Source: Bacteroidia bacterium
Lineage (GTDB): Bacteria > Bacteroidota > Bacteroidia > SXHM01
Length of the DNA: 64,000 nucleotides
Assembly (NCBI GenBank): GCA_050186075.1
Contig: JBFWYU010000019.1
Coordinates: 18,096-82,095, forward strand
Reading direction: 5' to 3'
In this document: piece by piece, positions 18,294 through 40,667 of the stretch
Position numbering within the stretch: the stretch's first letter is position 1
How the letters are laid out: each line of letters starts with the position of its first letter
The notes under the pieces: generated by a model
Seen by the model: the letters and a program-made list of their open reading frames with translations, nothing else
Told to the model about the DNA's origin: nothing
The model's database searches: none
Position numbers and translations under genes: made by a program

Positions 18294-19592
18294 TTACTCC
18301 AGAATAGGACTAAGAATATAATAAACCAACGCAGCAAGCACACCCGAAACCGGAATGGTTAAAATCCATGCCCACAACAGACTTACAGTAACACCCCAGC
18401 GCACAGCTGAAATACGTTTGGTAATACCAACACCTACAATTGCTCCCGTGATGGTGTGTGTTGTGCTTACCGGAATACCGAAATACTGACTGAGATAGAG
18501 TGTTACTGCTCCACCCGTTTCTGCAGCTACTCCTTCTAAAGGTGTTACTTTGGTAATACGGGTTCCCATGGTTTTAATAATTCTCCATCCGCCCGAAAGC
18601 GTTCCAAGAGCAATAGCCGCAAAGCAGGCATACTGTACCCAATATGGAATATCTGCAATGTCTTTTTTGGGTTTCAATGTACTAACGGATACAAATGCTT
18701 CTTTAGGGGCAACCATAAACTCTTTTCCTTCCTCTGAAATGGTTGAAAGGTCTGAACCTTTCACTGCAATGTATTTCTTGTCTTTTGCTTTTCCTTTTTT
18801 TGCAAAGTTGCTTTTCTCTGCCATCATCACTTCTTTACCGTCCACATTGCCAAGTACCAGTTTAGCAGAATCAAGCGCATAGTAAGCGGTGTCAATTTTA
18901 TACACGGTCTTTACGTGTGTCCATTCGTGACGGTCATATTCTTCTTTGGGAGCAGTATTGGCAAATACCAACATAGCAGCCGCAATAATACCCATTACTT
19001 TTTGTGCATCATTTGCACCATGCCCCAAACTGAATGCTGCGGACGAAACCAATTGCAAACGCTTGAACCACTTATCCGATTTTGCATGACTGCTTTTGCG
19101 GAATAAGTTCATGATAAGTGCTGTAATAAAATAGGCCAAAATCATTCCTATGATGGGAGCAAGAAAAATAAAAGCAAGCGTGGTGTAAATCTTTGCCATG
19201 TCTGCAAGTACACCAAAACCTGCTTTAGCAATAGCAGCTCCGGCAAATCCACCCATCAATGTGTGTGAAGAGCTGGAAGGTATGCCAAACCACCAGGTAA
19301 GCAGGTTCCAGGTAATAGCAGCAATCAATCCGGAAAGAATTACCGTCATGGTAATAGCATCAGTCTTTACGATTTTTGCAACCGTATCGGCTACTTTAAA
19401 CTCGAAACCCAGTAAACTATGCTGGCACAAAAACAATACAATAGCATTAAAAAATGCCGCCCATGCAACTGCCTGAAATGGCGACAGCACTTTGGTAGAT
19501 ACAACGGTGGCTATTGAATTTGCCGCATCGTGAAAACCATTGATATAGTCAAATGCAAGGGCAAGAAATATGACAATGAGAAGAATAGTCAT
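18294..19592 (-). CDS. Inorganic phosphate transporter (PiT family)
   Basis: NGFHDAANSIAT, GIPSSSSH, GHGANDAQK, GIPVSTTH signature motifs. Confidence 0.95.
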   Translation of the reverse strand: MTILLIVIFLALAFDYINGFHDAANSIATVVSTKVLSPFQAVAWAAFFNAIVLFLCQHSLLGFEFKVADTVAKIVKTDAITMTVILSGLIAAITWNLLTWWFGIPSSSSHTLMGGFAGAAIAKAGFGVLADMAKIYTTLAFIFLAPIIGMILAYFITALIMNLFRKSSHAKSDKWFKRLQLVSSAAFSLGHGANDAQKVMGIIAAAMLVFANTAPKEEYDRHEWTHVKTVYKIDTAYYALDSAKLVLGNVDGKEVMMAEKSNFAKKGKAKDKKYIAVKGSDLSTISEEGKEFMVAPKEAFVSVSTLKPKKDIADIPYWVQYACFAAIALGTLSGGWRIIKTMGTRITKVTPLEGVAAETGGAVTLYLSQYFGIPVSTTHTITGAIVGVGITKRISAVRWGVTVSLLWAWILTIPVSGVLAALVYYILSPILE

Positions 19593-19601
19593 GTGTAATT
19601 C

Positions 19602-20243
19602 TTAAGAGTATTTAATCAGAATGCTTTCAATGGCGTTGGCTGCATCTTCGCACTTATCGGTAGCTTCTTCCAAAGCATACAAAATTTCTTTGTGTTTGAT
19701 AATGGTGATGGCATTGGTTTCTTCTTCAAACAGGCGGGCAATGGTCATGTCAAAGATATCGTCAGCATGATTTTCAATGCTGTTGATTTTAACACAAGCT
19801 TCGCGGATTTTTCCTGATTTTTTGATGTCTTTTAATCCCGATACAGCAATCTGTAATTGCTCAGATCCTTGAAGGATAAGTTCTGATAATTTTATAAAAG
19901 CTGTTGGCATTTCGGTAACGCCATACAATTCAATACGCTTTGCCGAACCGTGGATAAAATCAACCACATCGTCAATAGAAGTTACCAGAGCATGAATATC
20001 CTCTCGATCAAAAGGGGTAATAAAATTGGCGCTGAGCTCGTGAAAGATTTCGTGCGTTACAGCATCGCCAACATGTTCCAGCTTTTCAATTTCACGTATA
20101 AGCTCTTTTCTCTTTTCAATATTGGATGTGCCAACCATATCAACCAGTACCTTTGAAATTACCAAAAGGTTGTCGGTTGCTTTTTCAAAAAGAGGGAAGA
20201 ATTTTTTGTCTTGAGGGATAAAGAATTGAAGAAGATTTGCCAT
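19602..20243 (-). CDS. DUF47 (PhoU-like) PiT accessory protein
   Basis: EHVGD, FITPFDREDI, ENHADD, LEEATDKCEDAAN. Confidence 0.92.
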   Translation of the reverse strand: MANLLQFFIPQDKKFFPLFEKATDNLLVISKVLVDMVGTSNIEKRKELIREIEKLEHVGDAVTHEIFHELSANFITPFDREDIHALVTSIDDVVDFIHGSAKRIELYGVTEMPTAFIKLSELILQGSEQLQIAVSGLKDIKKSGKIREACVKINSIENHADDIFDMTIARLFEEETNAITIIKHKEILYALEEATDKCEDAANAIESILIKYS

Positions 20244-20269
20244 TGTTTTAGTGATGTTTAATTTCGGTG

Positions 20270-20314
20270 CAAATGAAGATATAATAGTTATTGCCCATGT
20301 TACGGCAATGTTAA
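20270..20314 (-). promoter_or_regulatory. DUF47-PiT promoter with putative Pho boxes
   Basis: Minus-strand TTAAC (20310), GTAAC (20299), ATAAC (20287); TTCATTTG -7-like motif at 20270-20277. Confidence 0.7.
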
Positions 20315-20318
20315 TTCT

Positions 20319-21530
20319 TTAGAAATTTACCTGAGCCTGAAGCCTTAGCAAGTTACCGCTTTGTTTATTATTCTGTTTAGAAAAATCCTCAAATCTGCGG
20401 TCAGACATAGTGTACATAGCAACAAATTCAAAGTTCTTAAATGGCTGCCACTCTACGCCTACTTCATACTCATGAACAGTATAGCTGCGAGCATCTTTTT
20501 CATGTTTTTTTCCTCCGTCATAATACTGCGCTCTTACAAAAGGATAAATAAAGTGCTTCCCAATTTTTGCCATATAGTTCAATGTTATATATCCACCGGT
20601 GAGGCTTTTTGTATCAATAGAATCGGTGGCATTATTAAACTCCGGTCCCTGACCAATGTTATACTCTGCCTGAATACCGAAAGGACGAGGGTAAAGTACA
20701 AAACTTACTGCTGCACGTTGGTCAAGATAATTTAGACTGTTATTGGTTTTTACACCCGTTGACAATAAATCAGAAGGCATTACATATTTACCAAAATATC
20801 CCTGAATTGAAGGCTCAATAATCTGATTGCCGATTTGGAAAGGATAGGTTAAACGTGCCACTAAATGTGGTTCTTTGTTCAGTTCCAGCTTGTTTGCTGT
20901 TTGTCCGTTGTATATTCCAATTCCAAAAACGCCATAATCACCTGAGCCTTTATAGCCATCGCGCACCAGCATAGAAAAACGTTCACGTATTTTTTCGGGA
21001 GCCCAGTAAAAGAAAATACCTAAATCTCGCTCGTTAGAAAGAGCACTGTTCAATGCATCATTTCGGTCCAGGGGCAAGCGGTTTTGGCTCGACTGTAAAT
21101 TCTCAAAACCAAAAGGAACCTTACTCTGTCCTATACGAAAGCGAAACTGATTTTTTTTATCAATTCCTATATCAAAATAAGCATCTCTTACCTGCCCGAA
21201 GTGCAACCCGGTTGAACTGGCAGAACTGCCAAAGTCAGGTTGAAAATAAAAATACACCTGTTTATGAATTTGACCGAAGAAGATAATCCGTAAGCGTCTG
21301 AAGAAAAAACCTCCGCCATCGCCCCATGATTTATCGCACTGCTCACATTTCAAATCAGGATTGGTTTCCAAAAGCCTGTTGTAGCGCACCTGCATATACC
21401 CACGGATATTGATACTTTCATACCAATGCTTCTTGGGCTCCTCCTTTTTTGTGCTGTCTGCCGGTGAAAAGCCAAATGCATTCTGTGCAGCAAAGAACAT
21501 TACCAAAATGTAAAGCAATTGTTTATTCAT
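20319..21530 (-). CDS. OprO/OprP-family phosphate-selective porin
   Basis: Signal peptide; FFFRRLRIIFFG, RDAYFD, GQSKVPFGFENLQSS, ERDLG; C-terminal F. Confidence 0.85.
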   Translation of the reverse strand: MNKQLLYILVMFFAAQNAFGFSPADSTKKEEPKKHWYESINIRGYMQVRYNRLLETNPDLKCEQCDKSWGDGGGFFFRRLRIIFFGQIHKQVYFYFQPDFGSSASSTGLHFGQVRDAYFDIGIDKKNQFRFRIGQSKVPFGFENLQSSQNRLPLDRNDALNSALSNERDLGIFFYWAPEKIRERFSMLVRDGYKGSGDYGVFGIGIYNGQTANKLELNKEPHLVARLTYPFQIGNQIIEPSIQGYFGKYVMPSDLLSTGVKTNNSLNYLDQRAAVSFVLYPRPFGIQAEYNIGQGPEFNNATDSIDTKSLTGGYITLNYMAKIGKHFIYPFVRAQYYDGGKKHEKDARSYTVHEYEVGVEWQPFKNFEFVAMYTMSDRRFEDFSKQNNKQSGNLLRLQAQVNF

Positions 21531-21576
21531 TGTAAGTTTAATGTTATGTAATGGTTAAGTATTTTTAAAAACGCGG

Positions 21577-21643
21577 CAAAAATGGAGTATACAAACGGCT
21601 CAAAAATTACGAACAGTTTAACTCTATGTTAAGAAATTGTGAA
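21577..21643 (-). promoter_or_regulatory. Porin promoter with four putative Pho-box half-sites
   Basis: Minus-strand TTCAC 21639, TTAAC 21628, TTAAA 21617, GTAAT 21606 (11-bp phase); CATTTTTGCC -7-like motif near 21577-21584. Confidence 0.7.
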
Positions 21644-21709
21644 CAGATTAGTTTATTAGGCATACTTAGGCAGTAGCTGTACTTATCAAAAACATATAAA
21701 AACAGAGTA

Positions 21710-22024
21710 AGAAGTCACGTGTACTAAACAAGTAGTCATGACTACAAAACCTGTAGTCGTGACTACCAAACCAGTAGTCATGACTTTAAGGTTAGAAGTC
21801 ATGACTTTAAGGTTAGAAGTCATGACTTCTCGGTTTTAGCAGGGGTGCAGAAGCTATAAAGTCATGACCGGAGGTTTAGAAGTCGTGACTACTAAGTTAG
21901 TAGTCATGACCGGAAGGTTAGTAGTCATGACTACTGGTTTAGTTTTTATGACTTCCAGGTAAGAAGTCATGACTTTTAAGTTAGAAGTCGTGACTTCTAA
22001 CTTAAAAGTCGCGACTTTAAGAAT
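21710..22024. repeat. Tandem array of 15 x 21-bp units, each a 16-bp palindrome (AGWAGTCATGACTWCT) plus a 5-bp linker
   Basis: Units begin at 21710, 21731, 21752 ... 22004 in exact 21-bp phase; unit 7 (21836-21856) is unrelated sequence but keeps the phase. Confidence 0.92.
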
Positions 22025-22116
22025 ACGATGTGCTTATAAATGAGCAAAATCATATTTCAATAACAAATTGCAAGCTACCATTGCAGTATTATTATTGATA
22101 CACCTCTTGAGGTAAC

Positions 22117-23028
22117 ATGAAAACCCTGATTGTTTTACTTATTGCACAACTTACGGCTACCTTAACCATAGGCCAAACGGCAGAGGAGTATTTTAAAAGA
22201 GCGGTTACCAAAGATAGCCTGAAGGATTACAGAGGTGCCATAGCCAACTACAACAAGGTAATTGAATTTGACCCTTTGAATGCCGAGGCCTATAACAACC
22301 GCGGAATTGCCCGTCACATGCTGCACGATTACAAAGCAGCCATTGCCGATTACGATAAAAGCATTGAACTGAATTCAGGGCAGGCAAAAACCTATTACAA
22401 CCGCGGAGCTTCAAAAGCCGAACTGAATAACCCTGCAGGGGCCATTGCAGACTACAACACAGCAATTGAAATTGACCCTGAACAGGCAAAATTCTGGTCG
22501 GGCCGGGGCTCGGCAAAGCATGTGCTGCAGGATTATAGGGAAGCAATAGCAGATTTCAGCAAAGCCATTGCGCTGGACCCCGAAGATGAAGTGGCCTACA
22601 ATAACCGGGGAACCTCAAAAAAGAATATACTCGACTATAAGGGAGCTATGGAAGACTTTAACAAAGCAATTGAACTTGACCCCACCCACGCGGTGCGCTA
22701 TACCAACAGAGGACTTTTAAAAATCAGTCTTCAGGATTTAAAAGGAGCAATAGCAGATTTCAGCACAGCAATAGAAATAGACCCTAAGTACATTGATGCC
22801 TGGTTTAACCGGGGGCTTACAAAAGCTAATCTTCAAAACCACAGAGGCGCGGTGGCCGACCTTAGCAAAGTAATTGAACTTGACCCCGAAAATACAGTGG
22901 CCTGGTATAACAGAGGTCTTTCTAAAGTGCAGCTAAAGCAGAAAGAGAGCGGATGCATTGATTTGAACAAGGCAAAAAAAGCAGGCCACCGCGATGCTGT
23001 TGAAGCAGTAAGGCAATATTGCAGGTAA
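22117..23028 (+). CDS. Exported tetratricopeptide repeat protein
   Basis: Signal peptide; about 8 repeats of AYNNRG...AIADxxKAIELDP. Confidence 0.92.
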   Translation: MKTLIVLLIAQLTATLTIGQTAEEYFKRAVTKDSLKDYRGAIANYNKVIEFDPLNAEAYNNRGIARHMLHDYKAAIADYDKSIELNSGQAKTYYNRGASKAELNNPAGAIADYNTAIEIDPEQAKFWSGRGSAKHVLQDYREAIADFSKAIALDPEDEVAYNNRGTSKKNILDYKGAMEDFNKAIELDPTHAVRYTNRGLLKISLQDLKGAIADFSTAIEIDPKYIDAWFNRGLTKANLQNHRGAVADLSKVIELDPENTVAWYNRGLSKVQLKQKESGCIDLNKAKKAGHRDAVEAVRQYCR

Positions 23029-39234: not shown

Positions 39235-39332
39235 GATTTTTTTGATTTTTAAGCGGGGGCAAATGTAGTAATTAGCTGATGAGTAAATTAGCTGATTAGC
39301 TGATTATTTTTTTACCGCTAAGCCGCGGAGGT

Positions 39333-39398
39333 TTTGCCACAGATTCACAGATTAAAAACATAGAACAGCAGACATTAAATCTGTGAATCTGTGGCAAA
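39333..39398. repeat. Palindromic hairpin element
   Basis: Perfect 21-bp inverted repeat TTTGCCACAGATTCACAGATT / AATCTGTGAATCTGTGGCAAA. Confidence 0.85.
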
Positions 39399-39430
39399 CT
39401 ATTTTTCCTATTAAAAAATTTGCCCAACTA

Positions 39431-39462
39431 TTGCTTTTGTCAGGTGAAGTTTATAGTTTAGC
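39431..39462 (+). promoter_or_regulatory. Putative Bacteroidota sigma-A promoter
   Basis: TTG at 39431 and TAGTTTAG (TAnnTTTG variant) at 39454-39461, 20 nt before ATG 39481. Confidence 0.55.
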
Positions 39463-39480
39463 CTGCGAAAACATACAAAA

Positions 39481-39585
<105 letters not shown>

Positions 39586-39603
39586 TTTCCGTTTTCTTAC
39601 GTT

Positions 39604-39919
39604 CATTTTCGCTTCGGGTAGAATGTCTTCCGCTTCGGGTAAAAGCATTTTACCTCAAGGCAGAATCATTTTCGCTTCGGGTAAAATCATTTCACCCTGC
39701 GGTGGAATCATTTTCGCTCATGAGCGAAAACCGTTTCACCTTAGCCAAAGTGGGTTTACCCTGTGGTAAAACCGTTTTCCCCCAAGGCACAGTCATTTTC
39801 CCTTGGGGGAGAATCATTCTCCCTCAAGGCGCAACCGTTGTCCCCCGGAGAAAAATGGGCCTGCCCCGTTCAGCAGCCTGTTTACCCTAAGGGAAAATGA
39901 TTCTACCCAACGCAAAAAC
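39604..39919. repeat. Tandem array of ~15 x 21-bp degenerate palindromes (C-ATTTTCCC-N4-GGGAAAAT consensus)
   Basis: Units at 39604, 39625, 39646, 39667, 39688, 39709 (23 nt), 39732 (20 nt), 39752 ... 39899. Confidence 0.9.
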
Positions 39920-39971
39920 CAATTCTTTATATACAAAACCGATTATTAACCCTTAAAAAAAACCAAAAAAC

Positions 39972-40667
39972 ATGGCAGACTTTGTAAAAGACAACGACCT
40001 GCAATTCGCTTTGCAGTATAAAAATTTCAGCGACAAGGTAACCAGTGCAACCTACGCTGCATTGTTCGGGCTAAGCGCAACCGAAATTGCCGCCATACAG
40101 GCAGATGCTGAATGGGCTACCTATGTAATTACGCGCCACAACACGGTGCCCAACTATTCGCAGGACTGGACAAAACTTAAAAACCAGCTTCGCTACGGAG
40201 GCGATGGACTTACCATGCCGCCATTTCCCGTAGCGCCCGATGTATCAACCCCGCCTGTGATGCCCGCTGTGCCAAACATTGAAGGTCGCCTGCGCTCGCG
40301 TGCCGCCACCCTTAAAGCACACCCCAACTACAGCAAAGCCATAGGCGAAGACCTGCAAATTGAAGCCCCCGAATCAAGCGTAGATTACAGCACCTACAAG
40401 CCCGAATTTACACTGGAAATAGCAGGCGGACAGGTTTTGATAAAATGGAAAAAACTGAAAGCCGATGGCATAAACATTTACCGCAAAAAAGGCAGCGGGG
40501 CATGGGAAAAAATTGATTTTGACCTCAAGCCCAACTACCTTGATAAAAGCCCATCGCCCCCCGAAGGCACTACCGAACAATGGAGCTACCGTCTGCGCTA
40601 CTTTAAAAATGAAGTGGAAGTTGGCGAAATGAGTATTGAGCAAACCATTAAAGTGGTGGGCATTTAA
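39972..40667 (+). CDS. Uncharacterised cytoplasmic protein: helical N-domain, Pro-rich linker, Fn3/Ig-like C-domain
   Basis: No signal peptide; LKAHPNYSKAIGEDLQI segment; C-terminal beta pattern IKW, INIYRK, WSYRLRY, VGEMS. Confidence 0.75.
   Translation: MADFVKDNDLQFALQYKNFSDKVTSATYAALFGLSATEIAAIQADAEWATYVITRHNTVPNYSQDWTKLKNQLRYGGDGLTMPPFPVAPDVSTPPVMPAVPNIEGRLRSRAATLKAHPNYSKAIGEDLQIEAPESSVDYSTYKPEFTLEIAGGQVLIKWKKLKADGINIYRKKGSGAWEKIDFDLKPNYLDKSPSPPEGTTEQWSYRLRYFKNEVEVGEMSIEQTIKVVGI

Follow-up and report, generated by a model that had tools for sequence, protein, structure and literature searches.

The nearest systems in print to the DNA described here are the BrickBuilt and PgRS repeats of Porphyromonas gingivalis and the type III toxin-antitoxin loci. 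BrickBuilt and PgRS/MITE464 come from the same phylum and, according to PMC4596501, are intergenic, noncoding, multicopy elements built of head-to-tail repeats, with units of 23 nt (about two helical turns) and 41 nt (about four). The arrays that we describe likewise span two or four turns per unit, and gene callers sometimes annotate both kinds as hypothetical ORFs. Unlike BrickBuilt, they have no common flanks or terminal repeats, have a strict period of 21 bp or its multiples, form 110 sequence clusters in a single genome, and are linked to genes of one protein group. The type III loci toxIN, cptIN, and tenpIN resemble them in consisting of a promoter, tandem repeats, and a protein gene, with repeats that vary between loci. 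According to PMC3401426, the type III units are 31 to 62 nt long and number 2 to 6, a terminator precedes the gene for a ToxN-type endoribonuclease, and a genome carries one or a few such loci. Here, in contrast, units of 21 or 42 nt are repeated 4 to 17 times, the proteins combine a helical and an fn3 domain, and a single genome carries about 50 modules.

Like the arrays, REP and BIME elements are short palindromic units present in many extragenic copies; REPs, however, lack a strict 21-bp tandem phase. Plasmid iterons and the centromeres parC and sopC are helix-phased tandem repeats that adjoin the gene for their binding protein (Rep, or ParR/ParB), with one system per replicon, whereas the arrays here are chromosomal and number in the hundreds, and a Pfam scan of 14 genes neighboring the array under study found no replication or partition gene. 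Intergenic tandem repeats are also said, in PMC9426551, to underlie structural variants in lake Planctomycetota. In the literature that we searched (supplements excluded), neither period-21 arrays nor a module in which an array precedes a gene turned out to be described, and the class is apparently both very large and undescribed. A cis element whose geometry rather than sequence is conserved, which accompanies one group of proteins in about 50 copies per genome, is unlike the described bacterial repeat systems that we found.

The array in the porin-TPR spacer

The array lies within a 64-kb stretch of DNA, here called the window (Table 1). TRF reported a period of 21 over 15 head-to-tail units in exact 21-bp phase, as a first-pass annotation of this DNA had described. 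The motif AGTCRTGAC occurs 17 times in the window, always within the array; chance would give 0.42 occurrences, and none of 100 shuffles had more than 3. Fourteen palindromic units had been claimed. Their phase held, but we found the GTCATGAC core (two or fewer mismatches) in 13 units, the remainder being a variant first unit and an odd unit, and the full 16-nt palindrome AGWAGTCATGACTWCT is present in part of the units only. Across 41 units from three genomic copies, the core AGTC(A/G)TGAC is 90 to 100% conserved, compared with 44 to 71% for the outer positions and linkers.

TABLE 1 Features of the two arrays and their surroundings, in window coordinates
Feature	Position	Strand	Remarks
Phosphate-selective porin O/P gene	20319..21530	-	Followed by PhoU_div (19602-20243) and PHO4 (18294-19592)
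Porin-operon upstream (promoter) region	21531..21649	-	Conserved in congeners without the array
Left nonrepeat end of insert	21650..21709	.	Congener homology ends at 21647-21649
Array	21710..22024	.	15 units of 21 bp; core AGTC(A/G)TGAC(T); noncoding
First, variant unit AGTCACGTGTACT	21710..21730	.	Also opens the copies on C4 and C34
Odd unit (central spacer)	21833..21856	.	Homologous to the odd units of C4, C34, G003, and G007; predicted fold-back apex
Right nonrepeat end of insert	22025..22039	.	Homology with G001 and G006 restarts at 22040
TPR-gene conserved upstream region	22040..22116	+	Includes minus-strand TGATTTTG at ~22045-22052
TPR protein gene	22117..23028	+	Orthologues in G001, G006, and G007 without an upstream array
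Second array	39603..39920	+	Different sequence family with 7 genomic members; makes up the 5' part of a complete module
231-aa gene of the module	39972..40667	+	No Pfam, NCBIfam, PADLOC, or PHROG match

Other sequence assemblies contain the same array. A Logan contig of run X1, possibly the source sample, spans positions 20300 to 22874 and has one fewer of two identical neighboring units at 21776. In another study, a 275-nt contig of run X3 covers 21733 to 22007 with two differences and two gaps; in a third, a 160-nt contig of run X4 covers 21794 to 21953 with neither. An assembly artefact, which the first-pass annotation had named as one way in which its reading might fail, is ruled out by the contigs from these two other studies. 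The array is real, and its unit number is 14 or 15, uncertain by one.

The second alternative raised there was a decayed heptad-repeat coding sequence, intact in relatives. A unit of 21 bp does equal seven codons. However, stop codons were found in all frames of the array, extending the earlier remark that they interrupt the heptad frames; ORFs over arrays of this type give nonsense translations; no frame through any array runs on into a downstream gene; and no intact coding homologue was found in congeners. A coding array is rejected on the strength of the stop codons and nonsense translations. We give hardly any credence either to heptad decay or to a further proposal, a REP/BIME cluster served by a RAYT transposase. 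Some units start with GTAG, as do many REPs according to PMC3733652, and the genome has four or five Y1_Tnp genes, but the palindromes that flank four Y1_Tnp loci are different ones, and neither AGTCATGACT units nor arrays flank these loci. These four RAYT-like genes lie at C65:8225-8569, C2:145444-145785, C16:75149-75493, and C4:37419-37763, each between inverted REP-type palindromes such as GCTCC-TACG-GAGC.

A CRISPR array, defined by unique spacers between its repeats, was also ruled out: the units abut, and the 5-nt linkers belong to the unit. Rfam covariance models gave no match on the array at E values up to 1 in a scan of positions 20000 to 41000, and elsewhere in that region gave chance-level microRNA-type matches only.

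The array sits in a 590-bp divergent spacer between the porin and TPR genes, 180 bp upstream of the porin start, and adjoins the edge of the Pho genes. Orthologues of the porin gene (61 to 86% identity) are present in five of seven same-genus genomes, and none has a tandem repeat upstream. In one of these genomes (G005), the porin gene lies 158 bp from an MscS gene, with neither the TPR gene nor the array; in G001, G006, and G007, the TPR gene precedes MscS and the array is absent. Given where homology to congeners ends and restarts (Table 1), positions 21650 to 22039 are specific to this lineage. The array is part of this insert of ~390 bp, which five congeners lack, between conserved porin-operon and TPR upstream regions. 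A weak minus-strand promoter-like motif had been reported to point into the array; TGATTTTG exists, but it belongs to the TPR upstream region conserved in congeners that lack the array. The divergent spacer between the porin and MscS genes (window positions 18294 to 21649 and the congeners) is a hot spot, ranging from 158 bp in G005 to ~9 to 10 kb in G001 and G003; here it holds the TPR gene and the array.

That the array might consist of regulator boxes controlling the porin operon as part of the Pho regulon is suggested by its place near the border of the Pho genes, upstream of the porin gene, and by its core, which contains GTCAT, a sequence that we take to resemble a Pho-box half-site. We regard this as extremely improbable. 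The array is absent upstream of the porin orthologues in all five same-genus genomes that have one, a conserved promoter region intervenes between the array and the porin gene, the motif lies upstream of no other gene in the genome and is missing from other Pho promoters, and the paralogous copies adjoin unrelated genes, encoding a TMEM175-like protein, BipA, and a T9SS-tail protein. For the Pho locus, then, the outcome is largely negative: the array is an insert and not part of phosphate control.

Related copies and their central unit

The first-pass annotation had called the array an orphan copy with no 231-aa-like gene beside it. Its neighbors are indeed the porin and TPR genes, and a family gene lies on neither side, which makes it a solo member of its class. 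The array family itself, however, is not unique to the locus, having three copies in the genome and relatives in two congeners. The two additional copies in the genome (C4:83375-83720 and C34:37530-37860) are collinear with the window copy, and the three have a common unit order: a variant first unit, a homologous odd unit, GACCGGAGG units, and a GTTTTTATGAC unit near the end. Beyond ~20 nt their flanks are unrelated. The copies thus resemble BrickBuilt in being three intergenic sets of short tandem units (21 nt, against ~23 nt), but their alignment showed no common nonrepetitive leader or tail and no common terminal inverted repeats.

The two congeners with related arrays are G003, whose array has 17 phased units, and G007, whose array is at the orthologue of the C34 locus. 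Both keep the same unit order and the odd unit, and in both the central four bases of the core have changed (GTTRYAAC). In G003, units ahead of the odd one have the core GTAACAAC and those past it GTTGTTAC, which keeps the two array halves mutually complementary. The odd 21-mer had been thought unrelated to anything around it. This proved wrong: homologous odd units occupy the same relative place on C4 and C34 and in G003 and G007, which, together with the complementarity of the whole array, makes the odd 21-mer the conserved center of a large imperfect dyad.

Long inverted arms are present in the array, and folding predicts for both strands a fold-back whose apex is the odd unit (z = -14.6 and -14.7). 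The consensus fold computed from all five arrays contains 97 pairs, with compensatory changes in 27, a number to be read with the caution that in a palindromic repeat conversion between arms can produce such changes without selection. Arm pairing inside the units of this family was not above that of shuffles (66.3% versus 67.2%).

Among relatives of the array, only the C34 copy and the orthologue in G007 are followed by a family gene, at a distance of 435 to 536 bp. At the G007 locus (L090:1215-1529), the interval from array to family gene contains a 104-aa HTH_3 (XRE-type) ORF that extends over the start of that gene; its counterpart at the C34 locus is an unrelated 94-aa ORF.

Together, the three arrays contain the 10-mer AGTCRTGACT 27 times; the rest of the 4.4-Mb genome has it once, compared with ~12 occurrences expected. 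With this near-absence outside the arrays, the core is not a dispersed operator. The scarcity of the 10-mer elsewhere may reflect avoidance of a restriction-type palindrome. Named genomes scanned with a pattern of three GTCATGAC cores spaced 21 bp apart gave 25 loci, including Mangrovibacterium lignilyticum and several Bacteroidetes MAGs; the pattern itself sets the 21-bp spacing, so these loci are uninformative on periods.

A genome-wide class of period-21 arrays

The first-pass annotation had proposed a class of elements defined by geometry and suggested scanning the genome for period 21 and tabulating the neighboring genes. The scan bore out the class and showed it to be far larger than supposed. 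Of 1,308 TRF rows, 234 have a period of 21, 119 of 42, 45 of 63, and 42 of 84, with other periods rare. Merging gave 192 loci totaling 41.4 kb, or ~1% of the genome (median length, 218 bp; 90th percentile, 316 bp). Inside long genes, 24 of these are true protein repeats; the 168 nongenic arrays form 110 sequence clusters, 85 of them singletons. Members of the class are noncoding and 60 to 500 bp long in all, with head-to-tail units whose length is exactly 21 bp or a multiple; all of this is true of the window array. The second array in the window, which had been said to differ in sequence from the first, indeed belongs to a separate family. A 21-bp ruler is thus all that unites the arrays making up about 1% of the genome, and the calling of array ORFs as spurious genes is a practical issue for annotation. 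In 100-kb samples of other genomes, each of four from the same genus had one to five such loci, and two from other families had no clear one.

Intergenic context could be assigned to 151 arrays, leaving out 17 of the 168 at contig edges: 76 lie between tandem, 47 between divergent, and 28 between convergent genes, against a background of 2,267, 486, and 492. No gene start faces 39 of the 121 arrays that lack a family gene.

In a folding set of 36 arrays, the sense strand was the more stable in 13 and the antisense strand in 23, so there was no sense-strand preference, and several arrays were unstructured, with z scores of 0 or above. Hairpins therefore cannot be the common principle. Nor is dyad symmetry of the whole array general, being found in 8 of 151 arrays by a strict test with exact 9-mers in which the second array of the window also scores low. 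The sole feature common to all of the arrays is a period of exactly 21 bp or a multiple.

Several further observations concern individual repeats. TRF detects only the first half of the second array. At its center (~39704-39723) there seems to be a perfect 20-bp palindrome beyond which the units are inverted, and the exact 9-mer test is too strict for such a palindrome. A perfect (AG)22 microsatellite (39528-39571) lies ~30 bp upstream of this array, and farther upstream (39320-39400) GCCACAGATTCACAGATT and its complement form a long, nearly perfect inverted repeat, on which Rfam gave chance-level microRNA-type matches only. A four-copy family of arrays with a 41-bp period (C5:57940-58349, C1:212702-213017, C33:45522-45833, and C72:19-402) has the same period as the PgRS repeat of P. 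gingivalis. A hairpin with a TCAA loop, on the sense strand of the gene, is common to at least three unrelated array families (L136, L141-L146, L150, L151, L153, and L155), with stems that differ (GGTC/GACC, CTTC/GAAG, and TACC/GGTA).

Array-gene modules

The proteins encoded next to arrays form paralogous clusters of 29, 6, 6, 4, and 4 members without Pfam assignment; they are 190 to 405 aa long, and the array lies 27 to 535 bp upstream. One cluster of six paralogs (~220 to 255 aa) is referred to here as the 6a family; the family of the window's 231-aa gene is another cluster. Among 70 proteins of the genome that match the HMMs of five such families, 49 have an array within 700 bp upstream and 21 have no detected array. 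With 168 arrays in ~3,245 intergenic spaces, the chance expectation is about 5%, and the count of 49 is biased, since the HMMs were built from array-adjacent members.

For an unbiased comparison, we collected loci by protein homology alone, disregarding arrays. In 201 genomes of the class, 23 of 30 loci of the 6a family had an array upstream (20 of 27 outside this genome). A search of metagenome contigs with a four-sequence alignment returned 50 loci of the family, 41 of which included the N terminus; an array was present upstream in 34 of the 41, and in 32 of the 36 with at least 300 bp of upstream sequence. With the same 300-bp requirement, arrays preceded 11 of 12 loci of a 319-aa family and 20 of 21 loci of the 231-aa family. 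The pairing of an array with a 231-aa-like gene, noted at first for the second array of the window, thus turned out to be general, with arrays upstream of several Pfam-less families in this genome, in other genomes, and in metagenomes.

Periods of 21, 42, 63, and 84 were counted upstream, and the homology-based sets contained no tandem repeat of another period. The repeat sequences differ throughout these loci, and the period tracks the protein family: it is 42 to 43 bp in all 11 loci of the 319-aa family and mostly 21 bp (14 of 20) in those of the 231-aa family (L192-L210 versus L214-L242), and the 6a family likewise has mostly period-21 arrays. CCGTACATAT units recur, so that array sequence is conserved inside some orthologous groups. 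Paralogous modules are homologous from the start of the array to the end of the gene and no further, and the unit of duplication is therefore array plus gene. Typically, a member of the class forms the 5' portion of a module that is duplicated as a whole and consists of an array, an interval of 14 to 450 bp, and a gene for a Pfam-less protein with a helical domain at its N terminus and an fn3 domain at its C terminus. The architecture of the module is conserved in other families of the class and in metagenomes, and the repeat sequence is not.

We consider it improbable that the arrays are purely selfish or neutral repeats of minisatellite or MITE type, like BrickBuilt, linked to genes through co-duplication alone. 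Copies are dispersed among unrelated flanks, arrays occur in every intergenic context, including 39 without a facing gene start, unit number differs by one between assemblies, and arrays turn over faster than their flanks; moreover, BrickBuilt, as set out in PMC4596501, shows that intergenic minisatellites of 23 and 41 nt exist in the phylum. Yet homologues only 25 to 35% identical, from many metagenomes, still have arrays of unrelated sequence upstream (32 of 36 metagenome loci of the 6a family, and likewise in the 319-aa and 231-aa families). Such persistence upstream of distant homologues makes co-duplication alone insufficient, and the three copies of the window array, with no common leader, tail, or terminal inverted repeats, also speak against a MITE-like origin.

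The -7 box of the host group, which we take to be TAnnTTTG, peaks 20 to 40 nt before the start codon of ordinary genes in this genome, 22% of which carry it between -100 and -15. In 23 modules of the 6a family, the strict box was upstream of the array in eight, inside the array in one, and in the gap between array and gene in none. Of 46 modules of this genome, 10 have the box upstream of the array and 6 have it in the gap, as far from the ATG as usual; the promoter thus does not precede the array in every module. In one pair of paralogs, the promoter flanks are 81% identical and the genes 88% identical, and the arrays between them are unalignable. Together, this pair and the box positions in the 6a modules point to arrays that are transcribed leaders with fast turnover, and the arrays are probably transcribed 5' leaders.

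The best explanation, which we hold to be fairly probable, is that the window array is a noncoding solo member of a period-21 class whose complete modules would consist of a leader array and a gene for a helical/fn3 protein. In such modules, the array would lie between promoter and gene and be transcribed as a long 5' leader, where it might act in cis on the transcript or serve as a nucleic-acid partner of the encoded protein. In the family of the window array, short palindromic units in halves complementary around the central odd unit would allow a single strand to fold back. We read the window copy as a solo member that was inserted into a permissive divergent spacer; it probably spread as a dispersed repeat and has no dedicated role at the Pho locus, where at most it would lengthen or insulate the divergent promoter region.

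A more tentative proposal is that each array serves as the nucleic-acid partner of the protein whose gene adjoins it, the conserved element being a 21-nt ruler (42 nt in the 319-aa family) on which one helical domain per unit would assemble into a periodic (ribo)nucleoprotein. The modules would then be a new, greatly expanded type of repeat-plus-protein system, with about 50 per genome, spread through a Bacteroidota-like class and common in metagenomes, and solo arrays such as the window copy would be decoys, relics, or seeds of new modules. It is possible, though somewhat doubtful, that the arrays act instead at the level of DNA, as protein sites two helical turns apart on one face, in the manner of iterons, centromeres, or operators, or through intrinsic curvature. 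Action on DNA would account for the exact 21-bp period, the one feature shared even by unstructured arrays, and for the contrast between a core 90 to 100% conserved and linkers 44 to 71% conserved. The HTH_3 gene between array and family gene in G007 also fits it, as does the period, which is 42 to 43 at each of the 11 array loci of the 319-aa family versus mostly 21 in families of ~230 aa; a period that tracks protein size suggests a protein-sized ruler. On the other side, 27 occurrences of AGTCRTGACT in arrays and 1 elsewhere, against ~12 expected, leave no room for a single-site regulon. The central four bases in G003 and G007 are now nonpalindromic, 110 sequence clusters would require very many specific proteins, the HTH gene is missing from the equivalent locus in this genome, and no rep or par gene is annotated in the neighborhood.

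We think it very unlikely that the modules resemble type III toxin-antitoxin systems, with the window copy as an orphan RNA array. The order of parts is that of the type III loci in PMC3401426, CCGTACATAT units show array sequence to be conserved inside some orthologous groups, and array period tracks the protein family. However, no gene for a ToxN-, CptN-, or TenpN-type toxin lies beside the window array, module proteins have no ToxN-type match in Pfam or PADLOC, and the modeled protein is a helical domain plus fn3. Units of 21 nt in 4 to 17 copies also differ from the 31 to 62 nt in 1.9 to 5.6 copies given there for type III loci. About 50 modules in a single genome, and paralogs that carry unrelated arrays next to genes 88% identical at the DNA level, are likewise out of keeping with type III loci, and a terminator between array and ATG was not seen in the one module gap scanned with an E. 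coli-type rule (39400-40000).

Searches with the module proteins against Pfam, NCBIfam, PADLOC, and PHROG assigned no family and gave weak C-terminal matches to fn3 or CarboxypepD_reg only. A structural model of one family protein (pLDDT, 86.5) has helices at residues 11 to 103, a disordered Pro/Gly linker, and an fn3 domain that aligns with 4yfe_B at Z = 11.7. The N-terminal helical domain found no fold match in Foldseek or VIA-align, the rows of which cover the fn3 part alone (residues 113 to 251). The Atlas clusters for the family contain "hypothetical protein" entries only, from Bacteroidota, Planctomycetota, and Spirochaetota, and the link between array and gene offers a direct handle on these large families in the three phyla. 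The Atlas taxa, together with T9SS sorting domains encoded in this genome, point to Bacteroidota as the phylum of the host. Many family genes in MAGs start 30 to 230 bp from the start of a contig, which fits contigs that end in arrays.
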